From Squalus acanthias (Eukaryota): a stretch of 64,000 nt of DNA. The stretch lies in contig CM059432.1 in assembly GCA_030390025.1 (NCBI GenBank), positions 63,490,001 through 63,554,000 of the forward strand, given 5' to 3'. Under the pieces are notes generated by a model. It made no database searches and was not told where the DNA came from. It saw only the letters and a list, made by a program, of their open reading frames with translations. The position numbers and the translations under genes were made by a program. Each line of letters starts with the position of its first letter. The stretch's first letter is position 1. Shown piece after piece: positions 1 through 63,500 of this stretch.

Positions 1-1175
1 CCAGAGGAGAAGTGAGAGTGACTGTCCTTGACATCAAGGCAGCTTTTGACCGAGTGTGGCACGAAGGAGCCCTAGTAAAATGGGAATTGGGGGGAAAACT
101 CTCCAGTGGCTGGAGTCATACCTATCACAAAGGAAGATGGTTGTGGTGATTGAAGGTCAATCATCACAGCCCCAGGGCATTGCTGCAGGATTTCCTCAGG
201 GCAGTGTCCTAGGCCCAACCATCTTCAGCTGCTTCATCAATGACCTTCCCTCAAACACAAGGCCAGAAATGGGGATGTTCGCTGATGACTACACAGTGTT
301 CAGTGCCATTCACAACTCCTCAGATAATGAAGCAGTCCATGCCCGCATGCAACAAGACCTGGACGACATTCAGGTTTGGGCTCATAAGTGGCAGGTAACA
401 TTCGCGCCACATAAGTGCCAGTCAATGACTATCTCCAACAAGCGAGGATCTAACCACCACCCCTTGACATTCAATGGCATTACCATCACTGAATCCCCCA
501 CCATCAACATCCTGGGGGTCACCATTGACCAGAAACTTAACTGGACTAGCCACATAAATACTGTGGCAACAAGAGCAGGTCAGAGGCTAGGTATTCTGTG
601 GCGAGTGTCTCACCTCTTGACTCCCCAAAGCCTTTCTACCATGTACAAGGCACAAGTAAGGAGTGTGATTGAATACTCTCCACTTGCCTGGATGAGTGCA
701 GCTCCAACAACACTCAAGAAGCTCGACACCATCCAGGACAAAGCAGCCCACTTGATTGGCATCCCATCTACCACCTTAAATATTCACTCCCTCCACCACC
801 GGCATACCGTGGCTGCAGTGTGTACTATCTACAAGATGTAGTGCAGCAACTCACCAAGTCTTCTTCTGCAGAACCTCCAAAACCCACGACCTCTACCACC
901 TAGAAATTTAAGTACAGCAGACGCTTGGGAACACCACCACCTCCAACTTTCCCTCCAAGTCATACACCATCCTGACTTGGAAGTATATCGCCGTTCCTTC
1001 ATCATCACTGGGTCAAAATCCTGGAACTCCCTAACTAACAGTACTGTGGACGTACCTTCACCACACAGACTGCGGCGGTTCAAGAAGGCGGCTCACCAGC
1101 ACCTTCTCAAGGACAATTAGGGATGGGCAATAAATGCTGGCTTTGCCAGCGACGCCCACATCCCATGAATTAATT
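1..1175 (+). mobile_element. 3' part of a non-LTR retrotransposon (RT domain plus 3' tail); same family as the tRNA-headed LINE at 17091-20497; runs off the window start
   Basis: ORF 56..841 carries RT motifs PQGSVLGP and FADD and is colinear with 19420-20497. It ends in the tail ...ttagggatgggcaataaatgctggctttgccagcgacgcccacatcccatgaa. Confidence 0.9.
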
Positions 1176-3988: not shown

Positions 3989-4906
3989 CAGTAAACTCTC
4001 GGTTAAACGGCACCTAATTATCCGGAATTCTCTAATAACTGGCAAAATTCAGGAGTAGGTTCAGGAACCCAAAGGTAAGTTTTACTGTATATTTGTGGCT
4101 GTGTAACCAGGGTTCTCGTGCCTTTTGCCGTGTAACCATGGCTCCTGCATCTCTGGTTGTGTAACCGGGTCCCCTGTACCTGTGGCCGTGTAACCGGGTC
4201 CCCTGTACCTGTGGCCGTGTAACCGGGTCCCCTGTACCTGTGGCGGTGTAACCGGGTCCCCTGTACCTGTGGCGGTGTAACCGGGTCCCCTGTACCTGTG
4301 GCCGTGTAACCGGTGCTCCAGCACTTGTGGCCGTGTAACCGGGACTCCTGTACCTGTGGCTGTGTAACCGGGGCTCCTGTACCTGTGGCTGTGTAACCGG
4401 GGCTCCTGTACCTCTGGCCATGTAACCGGGGCTCCTGTACCTGTGGCTGTGTAACCGGGGCTCCAGTACCTCTGGCCATGTAACCGGGGCTCCTGTACCT
4501 GTGGCTGTGTAACCGGGGCTCCTGTACCTGTGGCTGTGTAACCGGGACTCCTGTACCTGTGGCTGTGTAACCGGGGCTCCTGTACCTGTGGCGGTGTAAC
4601 CGGGTCCCCTGTACCTGTGGCCGTGTAACCGGGGCTCCAGTACCTGTGGCTGTGTAACCGGGACTCCTGTACCTGTGGCTGTGTAACCGGGGCTCCTGTA
4701 CCTGTGGCGGTGTAACCGGGTCCCCTGTACCTGTGGCCGTGTAACCGGGGCTCCAGTACCTGTGGCTGTGTAACCGGGACTCCTGGATCTGTGGCCGTGT
4801 AACAGGGCTCTCGTACCTTGGTAGGTATACCTCTCCGTTATCCGGAATTTTTAATCAACTGGCACCATCCCGGTCCCGTAGGTGCCGGATACGAAAGAGT
4901 TTACTG
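3989..4906. mobile_element. Non-autonomous Tc1/mariner (pogo/Tigger-like) MITE
   Basis: Imperfect 28-bp TIRs (CAGTAAACTCT...CGGCACCTA / TAGGTGCCG...AGAGTTTACTG) flanked by TA on both sides (3987-3988, 4907-4908). Confidence 0.8.
4095..4815. repeat. 29-bp minisatellite (~25 copies; consensus GTGTAACCGGGGCTCCTGTACCTGTGGCT) inside the MITE
   Basis: Tandem units are directly visible and explain the repetitive ORFs at 4018..4479 and neighbours. Confidence 0.95.
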
Positions 4907-17090: not shown

Positions 17091-17415
17091 GGGAACGGTA
17101 GCATACTGGTTGTGTTACTGGACTAGTAATCCAGAGGCCTAGACTAATGATCCAGAGACGTGAGTTCAAATCCCACCCCGGCAGCTGGGGAATTTAAATT
17201 CAGTTAATTAAATAAATCTGGAATAAAAAGCTAGTATCAGTAATGGTGACCATGAAACTATCGGATTGTCGTAAAAACCCATCTGGTTCACTAATGCCCT
17301 TTAGAGAAGGAAATCTGCCGTCCTTACCTGGTCTGGCCTATATGTGACTCCAGACCCACAGCAATGCGGTTGACTCTTCACTGCCCTCTGAAACGGCCTA
17401 GCAAGCCATTCAGTT
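17091..17415 (+). promoter_or_regulatory. tRNA-derived Pol III internal promoter and SINE-like body at the 5' end of the LINE
   Basis: A-box-like TAGCATACTGG at 17099-17109 and B-box GTTCAAATCC at 17164-17173. Confidence 0.7.
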
Positions 17416-17980
17416 GTAACAAACTGCTACGAAAACCAATAATAAGAATAAAACCGGACGGACCACTTGGCATCAACCTCGGCATCAGCTACAGACACGA
17501 CAAAGGCACATCCAGCCCAGTCGACCCTGCAAAAACCTCCTTGCTAACATCTGGGGACTTGTGCCAAAATTGGGAGAGCTAGTCAAGCAACAGCCTGACA
17601 TAGTCATACTCACAGAATCATACCTTTCAGCCAATGTCCCAGACTCCTCCATCACCATCCCTGGGTATGTCCTGTCCCACCGGCAGGACAAACCCACCAG
17701 GGGTGGTGTCACAGTGGTATACAGTTGGGAAGGACATTGACTCTGGACCCCATGAAGTCTCATGGCTTCAGGTCAAGCATGGGCAAGGAAACCTCCTGCT
17801 GATTAGTACCTACCGCCTGCCCTCAGCTGATGAATCAGTACTCCACCATGTTGAACACAACTTGGAAGAAGCACTGAGATAGCAAGGGCACAGAATGTAC
17901 TCTGGGTGGGGGACATCAATGTCCATCGCCAAGAGTGGCTCGGTAGCACCACTACTGACCGAGCTGGCCAAGTCCTGAAG

Positions 17981-18183
17981 TTGAGAGGTCGCACAACACC
18001 AGGTTATAGTCCAACAGTTTTATTTGAAATCACAAGCTTTCGGAACTATCGCTCCTTCCTCACCTGAGGAAGGAGCGATAGTTCCGAAAGCTTGTGATTT
18101 CAAATAAAACTGTTGGACTATAACCTGGTGTTGTGCGACCTCTCAATTTTGTCCACCCCAGTCCAACACCGGCATCTCCGCAT
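17981..18183. mobile_element. Penelope-like terminal fragment: perfect palindrome with a minimal hammerhead-like motif
   Basis: Arms 17981-18062 and 18065-18146 are exact reverse complements. TSD CAAGTCCTGAAG at 17969-17980 and 18184-18195. Core CTGAGGA..GGAGC-gata-GTTCC-GAAA. Confidence 0.8.
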
Positions 18184-20497
18184 CAAGTCCTGAAGGACAT
18201 AGCTGCCAGGCTGGGCCTGCGACAGGTGGTGAGAGAACCAACACAAGGGAAAAACCTACTTAACCTCACCAATCTACCTGTCGCAGATGCATCTGTCAAT
18301 GACAGCATTGGTAGTAGTGACCACCGCACAGACATTGTGGAGACGAGGTCCCGTCTTCACACTGAGGACACCCTCCATTGTGCTGTGTGGCAATACCACC
18401 GTGCTAAATGGGATAGATTCAGAACAGATCTAGAAGCTCAAAACAGGACATCGATGAGGGCCATCAGCAGCAGCAGAATTGTATTCCACCACAATCTGTA
18501 ACCTCATGGCCCGGCATATCTCTCGCTCTACCATTACCATCAAGCCAGGGCACCAACCCTGGTTCAATAAGGAGTGTAGAAGAGCATGCAAGGAGCAGCA
18601 CCAGGTGTACCTAAAAATATGGTGCCAACCTGGGGAAGCTGCAACACATGCTAAAAAGCAGAAGCAGCATGCTATAGACAGGGCTAAGCAATCCCACAAT
18701 CAACGGATCAGATCAAAGCTCTGCAGTCCTGCCACATCCAGTCGTGAATGGTGGTGGACCATTAAACAACTAATGGGAGGAGAGGCTCCATGAATATCCC
18801 CATCCTCAATGATAGTGGAGCCCAGCACGTGAGTGCAAAAGACAAGGCTGAAGCGTTTGCAACCATCTTCAGCCAGAAGTGCCGAGTGGATGATCCATAT
18901 CGGCCTCCTTCTGAGGATCCCACCATCAGAGAAGCCAGCCTTCAGCCAATTCGATTCACTCCACGTGATATCAAGAAATGGCTGAGCGCACTGGATACAA
19001 GAAAGGCTTTGGGCCCCAACAACCTCCCGGCTGTCGCGCTGAAGACTTGTGCTCCAGAACTAGCCGCGCCTCTAGCCAAGCTGTTCCAGTACAGCTACAA
19101 CACTGGCATCTATCCGACAATGTGGAAAACTGCCCAGGTATGTCCTGTTCACAAAAAGCAGGACAAATCCAGTCCGGCCAATTACCACCCCATCAACCTA
19201 CTCTCAATAATCAACAAAGTGATGGAAGGTGTCGGCGACAGTGCTATCAAGCGGCACTTACTCACCAATAACCTGATCACTGATGCCCAGTTTGGGTTCC
19301 GCCAGGACCACTCGGCTCCCGACCTCATTACAGCCTTGGGCCAAACATGGACAAAGGAGCTGAATTCCAGATGTGAGGTGAGAGTGACTGCCCTTGACAT
19401 CAAGGCAGCATTTGACTGAGTGTGGCATGAAGGAGCCCTAGTAAAACTGAAGTCAATGGGAATCGGGGGGAAAACTCTCCACTGGCTGGAGTCATACCTC
19501 ACAGAAAGGAAGATGCTTGTGGTGTTTGGAGGTCAATCATCACAGCCCCAGGACATTGCTGCAGGAGTTCCTCAGGGCAGTGTCCTCGGCCCAACCACCT
19601 TCAACTGCTTCATCAATGACCTTCCCTCCAACATAAGGTCAGAAATGGAGATGTTCGTTGATGACTGCACAGTGTTCAGTGCCATTCGCAACTCCTCAGA
19701 TAATGAAGCAGTCCATGCCCGCATGCAACAAGACCTGGAGGACATTCAGGCTTGGGCTGATAAATGGCAGGTACCATTCGCACTACACAAGTGCCAGGCA
19801 ATGACTATCTCCAACAAGCGAGAGTCTAACCACCTCCCTTTGACATTCAACGGTATTACCATCGCCGAATCCCCCACTATCAACATCCTGGGGGGTCAGC
19901 ATTGACCAGAAACTTAACTGGACCAGCCACATAAATACTATAGCAACAAGAGCAGGTCAGAGGCTAGGTATTCTGTTGTGAGTGTCTCACCTCCTGACTC
20001 CCCAAAGCCTTTCCACCATCTACAAGACACAAATAAGGAGTGTGATGGAATACTCTCCACTTGCCTGGATGAGTGCAGCTCCAACAACACTCAAGAAGCT
20101 CGACACCATCCAGGACAAAGCAGCCCGCTTGATTGGCACCTCATCCACCACCTTAAACATACACTCCCTCCACCACCGGCGCACCGTGGCTACAGTGTGT
20201 ACCATCTACAAGAGGCACTGCAGCAACTCACCAAGGCTTCTTCGGCAGCACCTCCCAAACCCGTGACCTCTAGCACCGAGAAGGACAAGGGCAGCAGGTG
20301 CATGGGAACACCACCACCTCCAAGTTCCCCTCCAAGTCACACACCATCCTGACTTGGAAGTATATTGCCGTTCCTTCATCGTCGCTGGGTCAAAATCCTG
20401 GAACTCCCTACCTAACAGCACTGTGGGAGTACCTTCACCACACGGACTGCAGCGGTTCAAGAAGGCGGTTCACCACCACTTTCTCAAGGGCAATTAG

Positions 20498-22041
20498 GCC
20501 GGCATGTGGAGAGGGTTCTCGGCGGCTCATCACTTTTTCAACTATTTCCTAGTCTACTTTCTTCTTCTGCATAACTCTATTAGGGGACAATAGCTTGCTT
20601 TGTATTTTTTTTTAACCAATCAGACCGTGATCAGCATTATTATCAATAAAACTCCTGGGGGGAGAAATTCAGTATCGCCCCATTTGGGGCGCAATTATCA
20701 GCCGGGCGCAAAGATTAGCGCCTGGTGCTAATTATCGCCACCGACTGCAAACTTGACTTCTATCGCCCCTGGAGGTGATTGCAGCGCTAAATCAGGCGCT
20801 TCACACCTGTCTTAAGACGCAAAGGCCGAGGAGCGAGGCGCTACCTCAGAGCGCTGGCGAAGCTCATGTAATGTCAGTCAGCAATGGAACACACACACAA
20901 TGGCACAGGCCAGTTCTTAAAGGGGATGGTTAATCTTGCTTTCCATCCACATCCTGCTCATTGCAGCCTTGAATCTCGGCCTGGAGAGACCTTCACATCA
21001 AATGTGCTGGAAAGAACAATGGAGAGTACCAGGCAAAGAGCTCAGAGTGCAGCCCCCACAATCTCTGCTAAATCGATACAAGGAATGGCAAATCAAAATG
21101 AACCTGCAAAGTGCTGCTCAGTACCCAAAACTCCTTCACACAACGTTGAATCTCTCCAGAAGTCTCTCCCTCTCTCTCTCAGAATGCGTAATTCAAAAAT
21201 GGCACCAACAATAAAAGGCAGGAAGTGGTCACCTTTAAATAGCGCTCCCCCTTTCCCTTCATGACTGCAGAACGCTCCCCTCAACCTGTCGTTGCTAGCG
21301 TCAGGCGGTAAGGCAGGGGGCGCCACTCAATATCCGCTCCGGGGCGATACCGGGGCGTTGCGCACTCGAGTGACGTCATGATCTGCCGGCGCAGAAGATT
21401 GTGGCGGTAGTGTTTAGCGCCGCCGTAAAATGTCTAGTTAATTTCGTGAGCGGCGCAAACTTCGCCGCACCTGGGCGCCAGATGCTTTGCGCCCCATTAG
21501 CGCCCTCTTAAGGCGCTAATGGGAGGCGCAACCAACTGAATTTTTCCCCCCTGGAATCCCATGTGATTAAAACTAATTTTGAGATTTTCTGTTGTCATAA
21601 ACCATTGGTCCTTTCCATTTGTTATTGAAGTAATGCTGGTAATATTATCATAATATAACTGATAATAAAGCTGATCCTAGCCCAGTATTCACATATGTGC
21701 ATTTCTAGGAAGTGTCAGTGGATAGCAATCAGGAGCAATAACCCTGCACGATTTTCCTCTTTCCTCACTAACACAGTGGCACTTAAGGCCAATTGTTGCT
21801 CTTTATCACCTGACTGAGATTAACAAATTCAGTACAGATCAGGGATTGGAATGTTCACGGCCTGTATGGCTCAGTGGGGAGCTCCAAATGTATGATGATT
21901 GGCTGCATTTTGTTAATTATTGGTTAAAAAAAAATACAAAGTAAGTTATTGTCCCCTAATAGAGTTATGCAGAAGAAGAAAGTAGACTAGGAAATAATTG
22001 AAAAAGTGATGACCCGCCGAGAACCCTCTCCACATGCCGGC
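20498..22041. repeat. Pair of ~123-bp inverted repeats (20498-20620 and 21919-22041)
   Basis: GCCGGCATGTGGAGAGGGTTCTCGGCGG...TTAACCAAT matches the reverse complement of ATTGGTTAA...GAACCCTCTCCACATGCCGGC, with a few mismatches. Confidence 0.9.
20658..21550. mobile_element. Harbinger-type non-autonomous element (CpG-rich, GGCGC/GCGCC-rich subtermini)
   Basis: TIRs GGGGGAGAAATTCAGT / ACTGAATTTTTCCCCC; CTG TSD at 20655-20657 and 21551-21553. Confidence 0.85.
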
Positions 22042-22509: not shown

Positions 22510-23332
22510 TTGTATTTAATCATTCTTCGGAATCTGGGTGTCACTGCCAAGGCTGGCAGTTATTTCCCATCCTTATTTGCCCTTGAGAAGGTGGTGATCG
22601 GCCTTCTTCTTGAACCGCTGCAGTCCATGTAGTGTTGGTAATCCCACAATGCTGATAGGTAGGGAGTTACAGGATTTTGACCCAGTGACAATGAAGGAAC
22701 AGCGATATATTTTCAAGTCAAGATGTTGTGTAACTAGGAAGGGAACTTGGAGGTGATGGTGCTCCCATGCACCTACTGGCCTTGTCCTTCTGAATGGTGG
22801 AGGTTGTAGGTTTTGGAGGTGCTGCCGAAGAAGCTTTGGTGAATTGCTTCTGTGCATCCCGTAGATAGTACGCACTGTGGACATGGTATGCCGGTTGTGC
22901 AGGGGGTGGATGTTTAAGTTTGTGGTTGTTTAAGTTTCTGGATGGGATGCTGATCAAATGGACTGCTTTGTCCTGGATGGTATCGAGCTTCTAGAGTGTT
23001 GTGGCAGCTGAACCCATCCAGGCAAGTGGAGAGTATTCCATCATACACCTACTTGTAGCTGGTGGTGAGGTTTTGGGGAGTCAGGAGGTGAGCCACTTGC
23101 TGCAGAATATGCAGCCTCTGACCTGCTCTAGTAGCCAAGGCATTTATGTGGCTATTCCAGTTGAGTTTCTGGTCAATGGTGACCCCCCCCAGGATGTTGA
23201 TGGTGGGTGATTCGGCGATAGTAATGCCATTGAATGTCAAGGGGAGGTGATTAAGCTCTCTCTTGTTGGAGATGGAACTTGTGTGGCACGAATTTTACTT
23301 GCCACATATCAGCTCAAGCCTGAATGTTGTCT
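22510..23332 (-). mobile_element. Degraded 3' fragment of the same LINE family as 17091-20497
   Basis: ORF 23049..23240 reads TFNGITIAESPTINILG..TIDQKLNW; the reverse-complement tail lies near 22520-22590. Confidence 0.85.
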
Positions 23333-28591: not shown

Positions 28592-29542
28592 ATGGCAGGA
28601 GAGCTCCGCTCCGTGATATGCTCCTCCTGCTATATGTGGGAAATCAGGGTCGCTTCCTGTGTCCCTGACGACCATGTGTGTGGGAAGTGTATCCAGCTGC
28701 AGCTACTGATAGACCGCATTGCGGCGCTGGAGCTGCGGATGGATGCATATTGGAGCATTCGCGACGCTGAGAACGTCGTGGATAGCATGTTTAGCGAGTT
28801 GGTCACACCGCAGGTAAAGGGTGTACAGGCAGGAAGTGAATGGGTGACCACCACGCAGAGTAAGAGGTGCAGGCAGGTAGTGCAGGGGTCCCCTGTGGCC
28901 ATCCCCCTCTCAAACAGATATACCACTTTGGATACTGTTGGGGGGGATGACTTATCAGGGGAAGGCAGCAGCAGCCAACTTCCTGGCACCATGGGTGGCT
29001 CTGCTGCACAGGCTGGGAGGAAAAAGTGTGGAAGAGCTATAGTGATAGGGGACTCAATTGTAAGGGGAATAGATAGGCATTTCTGCGGCCGCAAACGAGA
29101 CTCCAGGATGGTGTGTTGCCTCCCTGGTGCAAGGGTCAAGGACGTCTCGGAGCGGCTACAGAACATTTTGGAGGGTGAGGGCGAACAGCCAGTTGTCGTG
29201 GTGCACATTGGCATCAACGATATAGGTAAAAAATGGGATGAGGTCCTAAAAGCTGAATATAGGAAGTTAGGAGGTAAATTAAAAAATAGGACCTCGAAGG
29301 TAGTAATCTCAGGATTGCTACCCATGCCACGTGCTAGTCAGAGTAGAAATAGGAGGATATTTCAAATGAATACGTGGCTAGAGGAATGGTGCAAGGGGGA
29401 GGGATTCAAATTCCTGGGACATTGGAACCGGTTCTAGGGGAGGTGGGACCAGTACAAACGGGACGGTCTGCACCTGGGCAGGGCCGGGACCGATGTCCTA
29501 GGGGGAGTGTTTGCTAGTGCTGTTGGGGAGGGTTTAAACTAA
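28592..29542 (+). pseudogene. CR1 ORF1: N-terminal Cys zinc finger/coiled coil plus SGNH/GDSL esterase; premature TAG at 29435-29437
   Basis: CSSC..CGKC, IGDSIVRG, HIGIND and DGLH. The second copy has W at the stop position. Confidence 0.88.
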
Positions 29543-29543
29543 A

Positions 29544-32522
29544 GTGGCAGGAGGTTGGGAACCTGAGCAGGGAGACAGAGGAAAGGGAAACAAGGATAAA
29601 AGAAAAAGACAGGAGAAAAACAAAAATAGAAGGCAAAGAACTCAACGGTTTAAATCAAACATGGTCACAGTAAATAATAATTCATATAGGTCTGAGAGCG
29701 TTAAAAAAAAAAGCCTGAAGGCTTTGTGTCTTAATGCAAGGAGCATTCGGAACAAGGTGGATGAATTAGCTGCACAAATAGAGGTAAATGAATACGATTT
29801 GATTGGGATTACAGAAACATGGCTCCAGGGTGGCCAAGGCTGGGAACTCAACATCCAGGGTTATTCAATATTCAGGAAAGATAGGCAAAAAAGAAAGGGA
29901 GGTGGGGTAGCATTGCTGGTTAAAGAGGGGATTAGCACAATTGAAAGGAAGGATATTAGCTCTGATGATGTAGAATCTGTATGGGTAGAACTGAAAAATA
30001 ACAAGGGGCAGAAAACGTTAGTGGGAGTGGTATACAGACCTCCAAACAGTAATACGGAGGTTGGGGATGGCATTAAAAGGGAAATTAGAGAAGCATGCAG
30101 TAAGGGCACAGCAGTCATCATGGGTGACTTTAATTTACATATAGATTGGGCTAACTAAATTAGTAAAAATACTGTGGAGGAGGAATTCCTAGAATGTCTA
30201 CGGGATGGTTTTCTGGAACAATATGTCGAGGAACCAACCAGAGATCAGGCCATCTTAGACTGGGTATTATGTAAGGAGAAAGGATTAATTAGCAATCTTG
30301 TTGTATGAGGCCCCTTGGGTCAGAGTGATCATAATATGATAGAATTCTTCATTAGGATGGAGAGTGAAGTAATTGAATCAGAGACTAAGGTCCTGAATTT
30401 AAATAAAGGAAACTACGATGGTATGAGGCACAAATTGGGTAGGATTGATTGGGGAATGCCACTCAAAGGGTTGACGGTGGATAGGCAATGGGAAACATTC
30501 AAAGACTGCATGGATGAACTACAGAATTTGTTCATCCCAGTGTGGCATAAGAATAAAACAAAAAGGGTGACTCAACCGTGGCTAACAAGGGAAATTAGGG
30601 ATAGCATAAGATCCAAGGAGAGGGCATATAAATTGGCCAGAAAAAGCGGTAACCCTGAGGATTGGGAGCAGTTTAGGATTCAACAAAGGAGGACAAAGGG
30701 ATTAATTAAGAAGGGGAAAATAGAATATGAAAGTAAGCTTTCAGGGAACATAAAAACTGACTGTAATCGCTTTTATAGATATGTGAAGAGAAAAAGAGTA
30801 GTGAAATCAAGTGTAGGTCCCTTGCAGTCAGAAGCGGGGCAAGTTATAATGGGGAACAAAGAAATGGCAGACCAATTAAATGCATACTTTGGTTTTGTCT
30901 TCACAAAGGAGGACACAAATAACCTCCCAGAGATGTTGGAGAACATAGGGTCTGATGAAAGGGAGGAACTGAAAGAAATCAGTATTTTCAGGGAAATGGT
31001 GTTAGGGAAATTGACGGGATTGAAGGCCGATAAATCCCCAGGGCCTGATAATCTACATGCTAGGGTACTTAAGGAAGTGGCCCTAGAAATAGTAGATGCA
31101 TGGCTGATCATCTTCCAACATTCGATGGAATCTGGAACAGTACCCATGGATTGGTGGGTAGCTAATGTTACCCCACTATTCAAAAAGGGTGGGAGAGAGA
31201 AAGCGGGGAATTACAGACTGGTAAGACTGACATCGATAGTGGGGAAAATGCTAAAGTCCATTATAAAGGATGTAATAGCTGAGCACTTGAAAAACAGTGA
31301 CAGGATCGGACAAAGTCAACATGGATTTACAAAAGGTAAATCATGCTTGACTAATCTACTGAAATTTTTTGAGGATGTAACTGGGAAAATAGATAAGGGA
31401 GAACCAGTAGATGTGGTGTATTTGGACTTTCAAAAGGCTTTCGATAAGGTCTCGCATAAGAGATTAGCGTGTAAAGTTAAGGCACATGGGATTGGGGGCA
31501 AGGTATTGACTTGGATAGAGAACTGGTTGGTGGACAGAAAGCAGAGAGTAGGAATTAATGGATCTTTTTCCGAGTGGCAGGCAGTGACTAATGGGGTACC
31601 GCAGGGATCGGTCCTTGGACCCCAGCTATTCACAATATACATTAATGATCTCGATAAGGGAACTAAATGTAATATCTCCAAGTTTGCAGATGACACAAAG
31701 CTGGGTGGGCGTGTGTGCTGCGAGGAGGATACTGAGAAACTCCAGGATGATTTGGACAGGTTGGGTGAGTGGGCAGAAGCGTGGCAGATGCAATATAACG
31801 TGGATAAATGCGAGGTTATCCACTTTGGTGTCAAAAACAGAAAGGCAGACTATTATCTGAATGGCAATAGATTGGGAGAAGGGGAAGTGCAACGAGACCT
31901 GGGTGTCCTTGTGCACCAGTCACTGAAGGTAAGCATGCAGGTGCAGCAGGCGGTGAAGAAGGCAAATGGTATGTTGGCCTTCATAGCGAAAGGGTTTGAG
32001 TGTAGGAACAGGGATGTCCTGCTGCACTTGTACAGGCCCTTGGTGAGACCACACCTTGAGTACTGTGTGCAGTTTTGGTCGCCTTATCTGAGGAAGGATG
32101 TTCTTGCCATGGAAGGAGTTCAGCGAAGATTCACAAGGCTGATACCTGGGATGGCAGGAATGACATATGAGGAGAGATTGGGCCGATTGGGCTTATACTC
32201 GCTGGAGTATAGAAGAATGAGAGGGGATCTCATCGAAACATATAAAATTCTGACAGGTCTGGACAAACTAGATGCAGGAAGAATGTTCCTGATGGTCGGA
32301 GAGTCCAGAACCAGGGGTCATAATCTAAGGATAAGGAGTAAGCCATTTAGGACAGAAATGAGGAAGAATTTCTTCACCCAGAGAGTGGTGAACCTGTGGA
32401 ATTCTCTACCACAGAAGGTAGTTGAGGCCAAGTCATTAAATATATTCAAGAATGAGTTAGATATATTTCTTAAATCTAAAGGTATCAAGGGATATGGGGA
32501 GAAGGCAGGTACAGGGTACTGA
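29544..32522 (+). pseudogene. CR1 ORF2 (APE plus RT): single frame with two nonsense codons (30156-30158, 30306-30308)
   Basis: ORFs 29544..30158 and 30315..32522 are in the same frame; motifs LNARS, ITETW, GDFN, SDHN, QHGF and FADD. Confidence 0.92.
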
Positions 32523-34036
32523 GTTTGGATGATCAGCCATGATCTCATCGAATGGCGGAGCAGGCTCGAGGGGCTGAATGGCCTACTCCTGCTCCTATCT
32601 TCTATGTTTCTATGTTTCTATGATGGTTGGAAATTTTGCCTACCACCAGCGCATATCAGAAAACCGTGGCAACGTGCTCACGATTTAAATATGATGTACA
32701 GTGCTTACTGACAAAGTTCCTTACCGATGGCGCATACTCAGAAGACCCCCCTTGAGTGTCAGTAGGCTATCTGGTCATGGTGGACATCACAGCCAAGCCC
32801 AGTTTTCTTCTTAGTCAATGTCTATGCACATAGTCATATCAGCAGGTCAGATTTTTCTCCTCCTTAGCCTAGGATGATAAGGCCAATTTTAGTAACTCCA
32901 TCACCAGGCCATTGACTAATAAACCACAGGCCAGGGCTCAAACCTGGATCTTTCTGGTCTGTATGGTTCAGCACCACATCACATGGTCAAACTAGTCAAT
33001 GAGTCATCAGAGGAGCTCCTGGGGGTTGATTTTGAATCAGCACCAGCTTTGTCATTCCTACAATATTGCCGGGAAGGGGATGACAGAGATCTGATTGGCT
33101 ATTTATGCTAATACAAGGAATGTCAACCAGTTCATTTCAAATCGGTCACCAATGTGATCTAATTCACAAACAACAGCATTGCTATATTTGTGAAGGATGG
33201 AAAATTAACCCTAAATGAATAATCCAAAGATCCTCTGCTGCATCTAATTCTCACTTGTTAACTGCTTCCCAACAACCCCCACTGCTGTCCATGGATAATT
33301 TACAATTGTGTGTGCTTTTCATTGACAGGGAAAGTCGACTTTAGTGTTATCACACAACAGCTTTGCGAGTATAATGTTAGCTATATGTTTTTTTCTAAAA
33401 TGTGTCAGTATTTTCAGAATGGTAAATGCTACCACTTCCAATGATTCTCTGGAACTAGACAATGTAAGGCGCATTTACACTGGTATAAATACTAATCTCA
33501 CATGACTTTGATTTCTGCTGTTTTAAAAGCTGTGTAATGCAGCATAAACTGTTAAGGGACTCAGTGTTGGCAGAAACCCCCTACACAGCCTTTGTCTTCA
33601 GGTTTCGTTGAAACAAACAGATGATAGTGGGAAATGAAGCATTACCCACAGCACAAATGTCATGATAACGCTACAAGAAAATCTTATGTAAGCAAGTGAT
33701 GTAAGTATGAATTAAATCTTAGGGAATTCTACAATTTTTAAAACGTCTGAGTCTGATCCTCTCATCACCAACGTGTATATTTTCCTTTGTTGGCTAGTGA
33801 GAAAAAAAAATGTGTGTGTGTAGAAAACATGTTTTCCTTCTTCATACTTGCACTGACTTGTACCCACATATGTCCACGTGCAAACATATTCCAGCAGAGG
33901 GCACTGGTTGGAGATCAGGAACAGGAACCACAGCCATTTTTCCCTTTCGTAACCCAGGGGTGCTGATCCCCTTACTGTAGCTCCCCTGTTACCACCTTAG
34001 ACAGGCAAGTTAACTCAGAAAAGTACACTGATTGAA

Positions 34037-49304: not shown

Positions 49305-52110
49305 TTTCTGTGAAGGTTAACCAGTGCTGTAGGGAGGGTTTAGATTAATTCGCCAGGGGGTTGGGCACCAAGATGTAGTATTAAAAAGTAGAAACAAGGT
49401 GCACAGAGGACTAGGAGAAACAGTTAGAGTTAGAAATAATACAGAATTAGGTGGGATTGTAGAAAATACATAGGCCTAAGTTAGATTTGGAGTGCACATG
49501 TGTAAATACCCGAGTGTGGTTAATAAGGTTGGTGATCTGCAGGCACAAATAGACAAGTGGGAATATGATTTAGTGGTGATAAGGAGACCTGGCTCAAAAA
49601 AGGGGAGGATTAGATGCTTAATATTCCTGGGTACAAGGTATTTAGGAAAGATAGGGAAGGAAAAAAAGGATATGGGGTAGCTGTTTTGATTAAGGAAAAT
49701 ATTACAGTGATAGAGAGAATGTCCTTGAGGGGTCAAAGGCAGAATCTATTTGGTTGGAGTTAAGAAAAAGAGGATCTATTAGCTACATGGTGTATTTTAT
49801 AGGACACCAAATAGTGCGAAGGAGACGGAGGAGCAGATATGCAGGGAAATGACTAAGAGGTGCATGAACTATAGAGTAGTGATAAAGGGAGACTTTAACT
49901 ACCCCATTATTGAATGGGGTAGTGATTGTGTTAAGGGCAGAGAGGGGGAGGAATTTCTGAAGTGTGTTCAGTAGAACTTTCTTTATCAGTATGTTTCCTG
50001 CCCAACGAGGAAGGAGGCATTGCTGGAACTAGTCCTGGGGAATGAAGCAGGCCAAGTGGAGAATGTCACAATTGGGGAGCATCTTGGGAATAGTGATCAT
50101 AGTATCGTAAGGTTTAGATTAGTTACGGAGAAGGACAAGCAGCAATCTAGAATAAAAATACTTAACTGGAGGAGGGCTAATTTCAGCGAATTAAGGAGGG
50201 ATCTGGCCCGGGTAAATTGGAGTTAAAGACTGGCAGGCAGAAACATAATGGAGCAATGGGCTGTCTTTTAAGAGGAGATGGTTCGGGTACAGTCTAGGTA
50301 CATTCCCACAGCGGGGAAAGGGAGGGCAACCAAAGCCAGAGCTCCCTGGATGATGAAAGAGTTAGAGAGTAAAATGAAGCAGAAAAAGGGGGAGCATGAC
50401 AGATGCCAGCTTGATAATTTGACACGTTGGACCCCCTGGGACACATCTCATTGTCTTGGCTGTGCTCTTAGTGTGTCTTTGATGTAGGGAAAGATTTGAA
50501 TAGATTTTGTCTGTGTTTAAATTGTGAATTCTGGGAGATTCTCTCACTGCTAACTTACCTGAGGAAGGAGCGAACAGCTCCGAAAGCTTGTAAAATTAAA
50601 TAAATCTGTTGGACTATAACCTGGTGTTGTGCGACTTCTCAGCTTGATAATTGACAAGGGAGAATCAGACTGAATATTAAAAGTACAGAGGAGAAGTGAA
50701 AAAGGAAATAAGAGGGGCAAAGAGACAGTATGGGAATAGATTGGTGGCTAACATAAAAGGGAATACAAAGGTCTTCTATAGGCATATTAACAATAAAAGG
50801 GTTGTCAGAGGAGCGGTGAGGCCGATTAGGGACCAAAATGGAGAACTATTGGTGGAGACAGAATTCATGGCTGAGGTATTAAATGAGTACTTTGCATCAG
50901 TGTTTACCAAGGAAGAGGACTTTGCCAAAGCCACAGTAAGCAAGGAGGTTGTTGGGATACTGGATGAGATAAAAATAGATAAAGAGCAAGTACTCAAAAG
51001 GCTGGCAGTACTTAAAGTGGATAAGTCACCCGGTCCGAATGGGATGGATCCTAGGTTGCTGAGGGAAGTAAAGCTAGAAATTGAGGAGGTGCTGACCACA
51101 ATCTTCCACTCCTCCTTAGATACAGGGATGATGCCACCGGACTGGAAATGTTACACCTTTGTTCAATAAAGGGGAGAAGGATAAGCCTGGTAATTACAGG
51201 CCAGACATTTTAACATCAGTGGTGGGGAAGCTTTTAGAAACAATAATCTGGGAGAAAATTAAAAGTCACTTGGACAAGCATGGACTAATAAAGGAGAGCC
51301 AGCACGGATTTGTTATGGGCAAATTGTGTTTGGCTAACTTGATTAAGGTTTTGATGAGGTAACAGAGAGGGTGGATGAGGGCAGTGCAGTTGATGTTGCG
51401 TATATGGACTTTCAAAAAGAGTTTTATAAAGTACCACATAATAGGCTTGATAGCAAAATTGAAGCCCATGGGATAAACGGGGCAGTAGCAGCATGAATAC
51501 AAAATCGGTTAAGGGATAGGAAACAGAGAGTGTGGTGAATAGCTGTTTTCGGACTGCAGGGAGGTATACAGTGGAGTTTCCCAAGGTTCAGTACTAGGAC
51601 CACAGCTGTTTTTGATATACATTAAAGACTGGACTTGGGGGGTACAGCGCACAAATTTCAAAATTTGCAGATGACACAAAACTCGGAAGTGTAGTAAACA
51701 GTGAGGAAGATAGTAATAGATTTCAAGAAGAGATAGCCAGATTGGTGGAATGGGCAGACACATGGCAGATGAAACTCAACGCAGAGAAGTGTGAGGTGAT
51801 ACATTTTGGTAGGAAGAATGAGGCGAGGCAATACAAGCTAAATGGCACAATTTTAAAGGGGTGCAATAAGAGAGAGATCTGGGGGTGCTTGTGCGCAAAT
51901 CTTTGAAGGTGGCAGGACAGGTTAACAAAGCATATGGGATCCTGGGCTTTATAAATAGAGCCATAGAGCACAAAAGCCAGGAAGTTATGCTAAGACTGTA
52001 TAAAACATTAGTTCAGCCCCTAGCTGGAGTATTGTGTCCAATTCTGGGCACCGCACTTTAGGAAGGACTTCAAGGCTTTGGAGAGAGTACAGAAGAGATT
52101 TACTAGAATG
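49305..52110 (+). mobile_element. Old, degraded CR1 ORF2 (APE plus RT), 3'-truncated
   Basis: GNSDH, VLNEYFASVFT, KSPGP, SQHGF and LEYCVQF across several frames. Confidence 0.88.
50420..50639 (+). mobile_element. Penelope-like terminal fragment with hammerhead-like motif, inserted in CR1
   Basis: TSD CAGCTTGATAATT at 50407-50419 and 50640-50652; 50557-50639 is similar to 18063-18145. Confidence 0.78.
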
Positions 52111-59907: not shown

Positions 59908-62900
59908 CATAGAATCATAGAATCATAGAAGATAGGAGCAGGAGTAGGCCATTCGGCCCCTCTAGCCTGCTCCGCCATTCAATGCGATCATGGCTGATCA
60001 TCCAAATTCAGTACCCTGTCCCTGCTTTCTCCCCATATCCCTTGATCCCTTTAGCCTTAAGAAATATATCCAACTCCTTCTTGAATCTATTTAATGATTT
60101 GGCCTCTACTGCCTTCTGTGGCAGAGAATTCCACAGGTTCACCACTCTCTGGGTGAAGAAATTCCTCCTCATTTCTGTCCTAAATGGCTTACCCCTTATC
60201 CTTAGACTGTGACCCCTGGTTCTGGACTCCCCGACCATCGGGAACATCCTTCCTGCATCTAGTTTGTCCTGTCCTGTCAGAATTTTATAAGTTTCAATGA
60301 GATCCCCTCTCATTCTTCTAAACTCCAGCGAGTATAAGCCCAATCGATCCAATCTCTCTTCATATGTCATTCCTGCCATCCCAGGTATCAGCCTTGTGAA
60401 TCTTCGCTGAACTCCTTCCATGGCAAGAACATCCTTCCTCAGATAAGGTGACCAAAACTGCACACAGTACTCAAGGTGTGGTCTCACCAAGGCCCTGTAC
60501 AACTGCAGCAAGACATCCTTGTTCCTGTACTCAAACCCTCTCGCTATGAAAGCCAACATACCATTTGCCTTCTTAACCGCCTGCTGCACCTGCATGCTTA
60601 CCTTCAGCGACTGGTGCACAAGGACACCCAGGTCTCGTTGCACTTCCTCTTCTCCCAATCTATTGCCATTCAGATAATAATCTGCCTTTCTGTTTTTGAC
60701 ACCAAAGTGGATAACCTCGCATTTATCCACGTTATATTGCATCTGCCACGCTTCTGCCCAATCACCCAACCTGTCCAAATCATCCTGGAGTTTCTCGGTA
60801 TCCTCCTCGTAGCACACACGCCCACCCAGTTTTGTGTCGTCTGCATACTTGAAGATATTACATCTAGTTCCCTTGTCTAGATCATTAATATATATTGTGA
60901 ATAGCTGGGGTCCAAGGACCGATCCCTGCGGTACCCCACTAGTCACTGCCTGCCACTCGGAAAAAGACCCATTTATTCCAACTCTTTGCTTTCTGTCTGC
61001 CAACCAGTTCTCTATCCAAGTCAATACCTTGCCCCCAATCCCATGTGCCTTAACTTTACACGCTAATCTCTTATGCGGGACCTTATCGAAAGCCTTTTGG
61101 AAGTCCAAATACACCACATCCACTGGTTCTCCCTTATCTATTTTCCCAGTTACATCCTCAAAAGATTCCAGTAGATTAGTCAAGCATGATTTACCTTTTG
61201 TAAATCAATGTTGACTTTGTCCGATCCTGTCACTGTTTTCCAAGTGCTCAGCTATTACATCTTTTATAATGGACTCTAGCATTTTCCTCACTACCGATGT
61301 CAGGCTTACATTCCCTGTTTTCTCTCTACCACCCTTTTTGAATAGTGGGGTAACATTAGCTACCCTCCAATCCATGGGTACTGTTCCAGATTCCATCGAA
61401 TGTTGGAAGATGATCAGCAATGCATCTACTATTTCTAGGGCCACTTCCTTAAGTATCCTAGGATGTAGATTATCAGGCCCTGGGGATTTATCGGCCTTCA
61501 ATCCCGTCAATTTCCCTAACACCATTTCCCTGCAAATACTGATTTCTTTCAGTTCCTCCCTTTCATCAGACCCCATGTTCTCCAACATCTCTGGCAGGTT
61601 ATTTGTGTTCTCCTTTGTGAAGACAGAACCAAAATATGCATTTAATTGGTCTGCCATTTCTTTGTTCCCCATTATAACTTCCCCCGCTTCTGACTGCAAG
61701 GGACCTACACTTGATTTCACTAATCTTTTTCTCTTCACATATCTATAAAAGCTTTTACAGTCAGTTTTTATGTTCCCTGAAAGCTTACTTTCATATTCTA
61801 TTTTCCCCTTCTTAATTAATCCCTTTGTCTTCCTTTGTTGAATCCTAAACTGCTCCCAATCCTCAGGGTTACCGCTTTTTCTGGCCAATTTATATGCCCT
61901 CTCCTTGGATCTTATGCTATCCCTAATTTCCCTTGTTAGCCACGGTTGAGTCACCCTTTTTGTTTTATTCTTATGCCACACTGGGATGAACAAATTCTGT
62001 AGTTCATCCATGCAGTCTTTGAATGTTTGCCATTGCCTATCCACCGTCAACCCTTTGAGTGACATTCCCCAATCAATCCTACCCAATCGCGCCTCATACC
62101 ATCGTAGTTTCCTTTATTTAAATTCAGGACCCTAGTCTCTGATTCAACTACTTCACTCTCCATCTTAATGAAGAATTCTATCATATTATGATCACTCTGA
62201 CCCAAGGGGCCTCGTACAACAAGATTGCTAATTAATCCTTTCTCGTTACATAATACCCAGTCTAAGATGACTTGATCTCTGGTTGGTTCCTCGACATATT
62301 GTTCCAGAAAACCATCCCATAAACATTCTAGGAATTCCTCCTCCACAGTATTTTTACTAATTTGGTTAGCCCAATCTATATGTAAATTAAAGTCACCCAT
62401 GATGACTGCTGTGCCCTTACTGCATGCTTCTCTAATTTCCCTTTTAATGCCATCCCCAACCTCCGTATTACTGTTTGGAGCTCTATATACCACTCCCACT
62501 AACGTTTTCTGCCCCTTGTTATTTCTCAGTTCTACCCATACAGATTCCGCATCATCAGAGCTAATATCCTTCCTTTCAATTGTGTTAATCCCCTCTTTAA
62601 CCAGCAATGCTACCCCACCTCCCTTCTTTTTTGCCTATCTTTCCTAAATGTTGAATACCCCTGGATGTTGAGTTCCCAGCCTTGGCCACCCTGGAGCCAT
62701 GTTTCTGTAATCCCAATCAAATCGTATTCATTTACCTCTATTTGCGCAGCTAATTCATCCACCTTGTTCCGAATGCTCCTTGCATTAAGCCACAAAGCCT
62801 TCAGGCTTGTTTTTTTAACGCTCTCAGACCTATATGAATTATTATTTACTGTGACCATGTTTGATTTAAACCGTTGAGTTCTTTGCCTTCTACTTTTGTT

Positions 62901-63500
62901 TTTCTCCTTCCTGTCTTTTGCTTTTATCCTTGTTTCCCTTTCCTCTGTCTCCCTGCTCAGGTTCCCAACCCCCTGCCACTTTAGTTGAAATTCTCCCCAA
63001 CAGCACTAGCAAACACTCCCCCTAGGACATCGATCCTGGCCCTGCCCAGGTGTAGACCGTCCGGTTTGTACTGGTCCCACCTCCCCCAGAACCGGTTCCA
63101 ATGCCCCAGGAATTTGAATCCCTCCCCCTTGCACCATTCCTCTAGCCACATATTCATTTGAAATATCCTTCTATTTCTACTCTGACTAGCACGTGGCACT
63201 GGTAGCAATCCTGAGATTGCTACCTTTGAGGTCCTATTTTTTAATTTACCTCCTAACTCCCTATATTCTGCTTTTAGGACCTCATCCCATTTTTTACCTA
63301 TATCTTTGGTACCTATATGCACCACGACAACTGGCTGTTCACCCTCCCCTTCCAAAATGCACTGTAGCCGCTCTGAGACATCCTTGACCCTTGCACCAGG
63401 GAGGAAACATACCATCCTGGAGTCTCGTTTGCGGCCGCAGAAACTCCTATCTATTCCCCTTACAATAGAATCCCCTATCACTATAGCTCTCCCACTCTTC
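59908..63500 (-). mobile_element. Young CR1 LINE (3' half of ORF1, frameshifted ORF2, (ATTCTATG)n tail); same subfamily as 28258-32622
   Basis: ORFs 62981..63601, 62610..62858, 62047..62607, 61205..62086 and 60008..61183 are nearly identical in protein sequence to the + copy. Confidence 0.93.

Follow-up and report, generated by a model that had tools for sequence, protein, structure and literature searches.

Long interspersed elements (LINEs) are taken to be transcripts of RNA polymerase II (Pol II) and short interspersed elements (SINEs) of Pol III, which is thought to be too unprocessive for a coding retrotransposon, and target-primed reverse transcription is established for LINEs. Here we describe the element at positions 17091–20497 of a 64,000-nt stretch of the Squalus acanthias genome (assembly GCA_030390025.1, contig CM059432.1, positions 63,490,001 to 63,554,000 of the forward strand; the window hereafter). 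Judged from its sequence, it is a decayed, dead copy of an elasmobranch Zenon LINE, a member of the CR1 group of ~3.3 kb without open reading frame 1 (ORF1). The closest described systems are the elasmobranch Zenon LINEs themselves (PMC13343379), which share the same 5′ 400 nt, the length of ~3.3 kb, the lack of ORF1 and a single frame for APE and reverse transcriptase (RT), so that there is no difference in kind; the preliminary description of this DNA had suspected that the family might already be catalogued, and it was indeed listed as Zenon in 2026 in that paper. The lepidopteran Zenon/Persaeus elements are likewise ORF1-less CR1-group LINEs with poly-A and with short copies that keep both ends, but Persaeus, unlike the elasmobranch Zenon, is described in the accessible part of its report as having neither tRNA homology nor a Pol III promoter (PMC6740152).

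The tRNA-derived SINEs (SacSINE1, HE1 and the MetaSINEs) carry a tRNA head at the 5′ edge, as the elasmobranch Zenon does, followed by a conserved middle body and a LINE-type tail, whereas the middle of Zenon is a full APE-RT frame in an element of 3.3 kb. According to the passages concerned, shark SacSINE1 differs from Zenon in having a Deu domain and an L2 tail (PMC5499810), CmiSINE differs as well (PMC5804259), MetaSINE heads resemble tRNA-Thr (PMC4824008), and bivalve SINEs use Zenon tails (PMC11481361; PMC10294476). The leader motifs of the present element were not found in the supplements of PMC4824008 and PMC11481361 as far as these were accessible, where the sequences may not be present as text. 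RTE-1_DAn and related LINEs reportedly carry a tRNA-like sequence (PMC5786205), as Zenon does, but belong to the RTE clade; the passage in question does not state the place or role of the tRNA-like part, and no other paper naming RTE-1_DAn was found. A model for translation is offered by R2 and L1Tc, single-ORF LINEs with an uncapped RNA for which translation via a structured 5′ untranslated region (UTR) is assumed in PMC6765202; these elements are co-transcribed, freed by a hepatitis delta virus-like ribozyme and have no tRNA promoter, whereas Zenon has no ribozyme match in Rfam.

The elasmobranch Zenon opens with a tRNA-type head, a genuine and ancient trait of the whole catalogued family that has apparently not been described, and its APE-RT frame lacks an in-frame AUG. 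The latter is apparently new here, and neither trait is described in the main text of PMC13343379, which makes no mention of tRNA, Pol III, a promoter or a start codon. Because a tRNA-type promoter stands at the start of the element and no normal start codon is seen in its frame, Pol III transcription is likely and an unusual mode of translation would be needed, and the reading that we favor is an autonomous LINE that would be transcribed by Pol III and translated cap-independently from a non-AUG codon, to which we assign a probability of roughly 0.6. The first part of it, that Pol III makes the element RNA, is probable on the same sequence evidence.

The head matches the Rfam tRNA model at 17097–17178 with 22.7 bits and an E value of 0.031, which is under the gathering score of 29 and covers model positions 6–65 only, and ARAGORN called no tRNA anywhere in the window, the head included. 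Called against the consensuses for the A- and B-box, both boxes claimed by the preliminary description are present, the A-box at 17099–17109 as given and the B-box measured at 17163–17173. The layout is that of a type 2 Pol III promoter, with internal A and B boxes and the family 5′ edge at 17091 just before the A-box at 17099. The head thus bears the hallmark of a SINE2 element, a tRNA head with A and B boxes, but the element is not a short (100–700 nt), non-coding one, as it extends over 3.3 kb and contains an APE-RT frame. An anticodon-like arm (17118–17134) with AGU at the loop centre is followed by an extra hairpin (17139–17155) that resembles a tandem duplicate of this arm in the dogfish lineage. 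Between the dogfish and catshark forms the extra hairpin shows two paired changes (by eye), which could stem from re-duplication of the anticodon arm. Such kept hairpins, and the self-release from co-transcripts known for other LINEs, speak for another account, in which the head would be a processing signal at which RNase P frees the element from a host transcript, much as HDV-like ribozymes act in R2 and L1Tc. RNase P requires an acceptor stem, and the head has none: in the consensuses no pairing is seen between the 5′ bases and those that follow the T arm (by eye), which makes this account very improbable.

The head was then compared with a published table of 1,003 CR1-group consensuses (PMC13343379), using the first 400 nt of each. 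Head and leader open all seven elasmobranch Zenon consensuses, which come from five orders and measure 2,886–3,314 nt: SquAca_Zenon-1, -2 and -3 (dogfish) and the Zenon-1 rows of CarCar (white shark), ScyCan (catshark), RhiTyp (whale shark) and HypSab (stingray). The first 400 nt of the window copy match these consensuses (by eye and by exact motif search); SquAca_Zenon-1 opens with the same letters as the copy at 17091 and is near-identical to it over the first 400 nt (by eye). All seven consensus starts sit ~7–11 nt before the A-box, i.e. at the position where a SINE starts. The B-box reads GTTCGAATCC or GTTCAAATCC in six of the seven, and the six B-box words have six matches among the first 400 nt of the 1,003 consensuses, all within elasmobranch Zenons. 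The stretch between the A- and B-boxes is variable across the five orders, with the boxes and the start kept. The head is present in none of the three hagfish and coelacanth Zenons, each of which has a run of four or more T (T4) within its first 400 nt. In the readable cells of the table, the elasmobranch Zenon families have 59 to 2,313 long copies each.

Read data lead to the same edge. Fourteen of 24 runs, from five coded organisms, contain at least half of the words of 17091–17980, and in run X6 the loose ends before 17091 in 535 contigs agree at a level of only 0.33, indicating unrelated flanks. Contig depth is greater over head and leader than over APE in four runs, most of all in X17, which is guessed to be RNA; depth cannot rank the parts. 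Because unrelated flanks join at 17091 and the same start recurs in all seven consensuses, the head is almost certainly part of the element. The dense SINE and LINE fragments in the window, and the lack of a demonstrable target-site duplication at the cut copy, had left room for a chance neighborhood of head and LINE, for a single chimera made by template switching or for a LINE inserting at a fixed SINE site. This explanation is largely refuted by the identical junction in all seven consensuses of five orders, by the coding frame that continues from the leader, and by the two 3′ ends in the window, which have different flanks and no SINE remainder. The preliminary description was therefore right to treat head and LINE as one unit. 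Because the junction is family-wide and the family has no ORF1, two of the three findings that it named as fatal to its proposal, a junction unique to this locus and a family with another 5′ end or an ORF1, do not apply; both were checked, and neither holds.

Neither this head nor the missing AUG was found described in the open literature; Repbase, Dfam, subscription journals, bioRxiv supplements and the consensus table beyond the first 400 nt of each row may contain a description. The accessible text of a whale shark preprint and of the preprint of PMC13343379 gave no matches for tRNA. The leader motif had no match in viral or metagenome contigs, and protein alignment found none in viral contigs. 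Among 152 related loci, leader and tail had no credible blastn match (best E 0.047), and in the 60 of these loci examined with ARAGORN no tRNA was called, a result that shows little, as the program misses the window head too and many loci lack a 5′ end.

The APE frame of the window copy is preceded by the stops TAG at 17399 and TAA at 17417, and no in-frame ATG occurs from 17417 to APE motif I (NIWG), which begins at 17546. There are five or more upstream AUGs in the leader, all stopped or out of frame, including four in frame 0 that are stopped upstream of the APE frame. Among related stop-bounded frames, 36 of 38 contain a Met upstream of motif I or at it; the 38 are the frames in which a loose pattern detected motif I, the other 49 of the 87 long related frames lacking the motif or a stop. 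The nearest proteins start 16–31 residues before motif I, at positions that are mostly gene-caller choices, while the start of one AUG-started relative, L081, was read from the DNA. The HypSab row, visible through motif I, has no in-frame AUG, nor do the white shark, whale shark and catshark rows in their visible part, which ends ~15 codons before motif I (by eye). The preliminary description had noted that translation of an uncapped transcript would need explaining, and an APE frame without an in-frame AUG now provides a lead.

A GCU codon (17426–17428) is in frame in the stingray, white shark, whale shark and catshark consensuses, and the distance from it to the next fixed codons is 18, 18, 15 and 18 nt in the four species and 18 nt here; just before GCU the frame is not kept, with the whale shark one base short and a stop in the dogfish rows (all by eye). 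No near-cognate codon is common to the consensuses, and indels at the site after GCU reach 25% in none of four runs (counts incomplete for three). Because the frame is kept after GCU in four species and not before it, translation likely starts at or shortly after this codon, to judge from the alignment, and we lean cautiously towards a non-AUG start in the APE frame. One other possibility, compatible with either polymerase, is that translation begins at an AUG in the +1 frame ~33 codons before motif I and shifts by −1 into the APE frame. This AUG is present in six of the seven consensuses (by eye), at the distance at which the relatives start. Against such a shift, no site of the slippery consensus X_XXY_YYZ lies between the AUG and motif I in the window or in HypSab (by eye). 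Moreover, the upstream APE frame is open and basic like the N-terminus of the related APE-RT protein P0002 (9 Arg+Lys in 30), and silent non-CpG changes between species are slightly more numerous for the APE frame than for the +1 frame (3 vs 2; by eye, a weak signal). We regard the frameshift as improbable.

The leader consists of an A-rich variable part and a core that is ~95% alike across the five orders (by eye), and one of its hairpins changes from A-U to G-C in the whale shark and to G-U in the stingray. Just before the proposed start, a hairpin predicted by the minimum-energy fold at 17388–17413 exposes a 7-nt loop, CUAGCAA (17398–17404), which is kept in six of the seven consensuses. 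AGC in the middle of the loop is the complement of the in-frame GCU, and GCUA is kept in all seven. The arrangement is loosely like that of pseudoknot I (PKI) in the intergenic region (IGR) internal ribosome entry site (IRES) of dicistroviruses, where the accessible text of PMC4132737 describes a non-AUG start, an anticodon-like loop, a variable linker and a complementary in-frame triplet. The frame without an AUG start is common to both. The Israeli acute paralysis virus (IAPV) element requires at least 4 pairs ending at a codon boundary (PMC4132737), whereas the Zenon pairing has three pairs on the codon and a fourth 3′ of it and so falls short. The loop-GCU match has a chance probability of ~0.09–0.21, and no covariation supporting the pairing was found. 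A domain like PKII or PKIII was not found either, with no Rfam match to E 10 and with folding tools that do not model pseudoknots. That the hairpin acts as a codon-anticodon mimic is therefore doubtful, a lead and not a finding. One sentence in PMC3894237 mentions a dicistrovirus-like IRES as possible for non-LTR elements. Two other candidates were rejected: a pseudoknot of GGUUG with the five bases before GCU, of which GG lies within a 5-bp GCAA-loop hairpin in the consensuses, and stop read-through from AUG-GCC-UAG, for which there is a second in-frame stop here and a different frame in RhiTyp.

Runs of four or more T (T4+) terminate vertebrate Pol III. Outside the later palindromic insertion (T4+ only at 18018 and 18147) the sense strand of 17091–20497 has no T4+ run, whereas it has 17 A4+ runs. 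Together, three Zenon copies in the window have one T4 in 5,190 nt, compared with 43 in 11,818 nt of six CR1 pieces. These counts bear out what the preliminary description had read by eye, including the single TTTT of the sister copy at 1–1175, where the copy at 17091 reads ATTT, and the absence of T4 from the third copy (22510–23332). In the overlap of the first two copies the lone TTTT and the lone TGTTT are each private to one copy. T4 is absent from the first 400 nt of all seven elasmobranch consensuses, which have A runs of up to 10 (by eye). Among 40 of 399 majority differences, 13 changes read T, and none makes a T4.

With a Markov model of order 0, the absence of T4 from 3,192 nt contrasts with 4.57 expected (P 0.007). 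Within the frame, T3+ runs number 9 against 14.4 expected from permutation of the element's own codons (P 0.023) and 19.5 from a third-position model (P 0.001); the values for the CR1 control are 27 against 31.6 and 35.6 for T3+ and 6 against 8.6 and 9.6 for T4. TVTTT words are named as minimal Pol III terminators in the accessible part of PMC8466645, and when TNTTT is counted with T4 the Zenon frame has 1 against 4.27 expected (P 0.035). Among the 152 related loci, 87 with a frame of at least 600 codons were counted for T4: none has zero, with a median of 19.6 per 948 codons compared with 0 per 948 here, and the observed/expected ratio for T4 and TNTTT is 0.23 here compared with a minimum of 0.58 among the 87. 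The TTC bias of Phe codons is no stronger than the bias in other two-fold boxes (P 0.46).

Several observations weigh against the reading favored here. The expected T4 count falls to 2.25 with order 1 (P 0.11) and 0.99 with order 2 (P 0.36), neither significant, while higher orders soak up part of any true avoidance because T3 is low too. Codon controls are borderline: 0 T4 in 2,844 coding nt compares with 2.13 expected by own-codon permutation (P 0.081) and 2.63 by the third-position model (P 0.050). The CR1 control (29024–32622) is also depleted in T4 and TNTTT (8 vs 15.6, P 0.0005). The T share is 0.30 at the median of the 87 relatives and 0.20 here, and L081, which has an AUG start and a T share of 0.20, contains a single T4 over 953 codons; being AUG-started yet nearly T4-free, it counts against T4 as a marker. 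Outside these counts, the B-box of the HypSab consensus is damaged, SquAca_Zenon-1 loses the frame by one base after GCU, where SquAca-2 and -3 have deletions, and the out-of-frame AUG before motif I stands in most consensuses. Leader folding is no better than that of shuffles (z −0.4 to −1.15, in a decayed copy), and the leader matches no Rfam IRES in a search to E 10. The AATAAA and poly-A end of the tail fit Pol II equally, and known Pol III retroelements measure 100–1,263 nt, a range ascribed to low processivity in the accessible text of PMC10886601. Because the T4 deficit is borderline after codon control and the CR1 control is low as well, it is no proof of Pol III. The absence of T4 is real and fits Pol III, at a borderline level, and one decayed copy is insufficient for the claim. 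Of the selection against terminators proposed in the preliminary description, the true absence and the result with TNTTT stand, while after the codon shuffle and with a depleted CR1 control the case for selection itself is borderline.

These points are also what a Pol II account would draw on. In that account the 5′ part of a SINE was captured once, the RNA is made by Pol II from a promoter in the head or leader or by host read-through, low T is a by-product of composition, and a capped RNA is translated by reinitiation at a non-AUG codon after a short upstream frame. The borderline T4 statistics, the depleted control and the nearly T4-free, AUG-started L081 are in line with it, as are the AATAAA and the poly-A tail, which other Zenons have too, and the view of LINEs as Pol II transcripts. 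AUG-GCC-UAG, nine codons before GCU in the consensuses, could be the upstream frame, and AUG-independent reinitiation occurs at ORF2 of L1. It leaves unaccounted for that the B-box and a start ~8 nt before the A-box have been kept over five orders, in contrast to the variable stretch that separates the boxes, and Pol II initiation or read-through would not itself place the 5′ edge at the SINE start. In addition, five or more upstream AUGs impede scanning, and AUG-GCC-UAG is out of frame in RhiTyp. We consider the Pol II account possible but clearly the less likely one. L081 was also considered as a second Pol III-type element and rejected, because it starts with an AUG and its 3′ UTR contains T5 and T7 runs; on the 5′ side, 33 nt of sequence are available. 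Its intact frame (L081:34–3033) has an AUG, is accompanied by poly-A and a (GA)n run and lies in a Clostridia-bin contig, and among L082–L152 many Thiodiazotropha and Sedimenticola bins also contain such LINEs; these LINEs in bacterial genome bins are likely host animal DNA.

Taken as a whole, the Pol III mechanism is plausible, testable and unproven, and would run as follows. An ancestral elasmobranch Zenon would have swapped its own 5′ end for a SINE-type head. Pol III would then start at 17091, meet no terminator over 3.3 kb and stop in the flank, and the uncapped RNA would be translated cap-independently from GCU at 17426 or just after it. The protein would copy its own RNA from the tail via target-primed reverse transcription, and SINE-like partners would arise by internal deletions sparing head, leader and tail. 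A LINE family that occurs in each genome in hundreds to thousands of long copies, in five shark and ray orders, with an intact Pol III promoter and no AUG would break the division of polymerases between LINEs and SINEs. It would make the elasmobranch Zenon a test case for whether multi-kilobase Pol III mRNAs are made and translated in cells, its leader a candidate short cap-independent translation leader from a vertebrate genome, and plain deletion, rather than fusion of head and tail, a possible route to SINEs. Should the RNA come from Pol II after all, the kept head and the absent start codon would still be unexplained in a catalogued family.

The preliminary description had linked the head to a partner SINE that would arise by internal deletion, and two contig joints lend this weak support. 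In run X1, 2 contigs have a joint from 17432 to 20434, the shorter side of which measures 21 letters, and in run X17 a joint connects 17423 to 20445 with 18 letters between; both consist of head, entire leader and tail.

The features of the element and its copies in the window are collected in Table 1. The Zenon element has a fixed order of head, leader, one APE-RT frame and a short stem-loop tail; as had been described, there is no tail, poly-A or space for ORF1 between head and APE, and the distance from the 5′ edge to motif I is 455 nt. The RT domain (~19153–19860) matches Pfam RVT_1, and the frame ends at the TAG at 20495–20497. The APE call is based on BLASTP against P0002 (E 7e-11) and on the Pfam labels of homologs; a Pfam search of the broken APE pieces of the window recovered no APE domain. 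One frame carrying APE and RT without ORF1 is as expected of a Zenon. In a quick tree of 77 rows that included no named Zenon, the RT (P0001) groups with P0002–P0004 and P0006 with a support of 86, apart from the CR1 of the window. Protein searches returned shark and ray fragments with 55–81% identity and unnamed proteins with at most 44%, and no named sister clade was among the matches.

Table 1. Features of the Zenon copy at 17091 and of related copies (window positions)
Feature	Position	Strand	Remarks
tRNA-derived head	17091..17190	+	Rfam tRNA match; family 5′ edge at 17091; no acceptor stem
A-box TAGCATACTGG	17099..17109	+	one mismatch vs family form
B-box AGTTCAAATCC	17163..17173	+	window sequence
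Leader, SINE-like body	17191..17425	+	A-rich variable part, then core from ~17270; consensuses by eye
Candidate start-setting element	17388..17428	+	hairpin 17388–17413, stops 17399 and 17417, variable linker, GCU 17426–17428
APE-RT reading frame, single	17420..20497	+	interrupted by stop codons, frameshifts and small deletions; in-frame AUG absent upstream of motif I
Later palindromic insertion, 215 nt	17980..18194		10-nt duplication at 17970–17979 and 18185–18194
Cut point of Zenon copy	20498..20620		first arm of 123-bp inverted repeat, second arm 21919–22041
Sister Zenon copy	1..1175	+	89.9% identical; 3′ tail with AATAAA, stem-loop (z −3.2), A-rich end
Third Zenon copy, older, 5′-truncated	22510..23332	−	80% identical

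The copy at 17091 lacks its last ~60 nt, being cut at 20498, before the tail, by an inverted-repeat element; the loose ends behind 20498 continue into the family tail in runs X6, X9 and X17, and each sister copy has a short A-rich stretch as its end. The stem-loop of the Zenon 3′ tail is significant (Table 1). No target-site duplication was seen around the inverted-repeat unit (20498–20620 and 21919–22041), whose 123-bp repeats (96.7%) flank a 1.5-kb interval that is GC-rich and palindromic at ~20660–21550. Joints that omit the 215-nt insertion are present in contigs of all four runs. The palindromic insertion (17980–18194, also at ~50541–50645), labeled Penelope in the preliminary description, is very deep in X1 and X17 and almost uncovered in X6 and X9, a difference that hints at a younger, lineage-limited repeat.

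Pieces of Zenon protein with 66–79% identity are contained in the shark gene models P0075, P0076, P0079, P0132 and P0139, labeled as FERM domain, anoctamin, sushi/vWA, MyoD inhibitor and aldo-keto reductase, and are probably annotation artefacts or exonised copies. Elsewhere in the window, two 3.6-kb CR1 copies (29024–32622 and 59908–63499) are 95% identical in opposite orientation, and a tandem array with a period of ~58 bp occupies 4093–4818.

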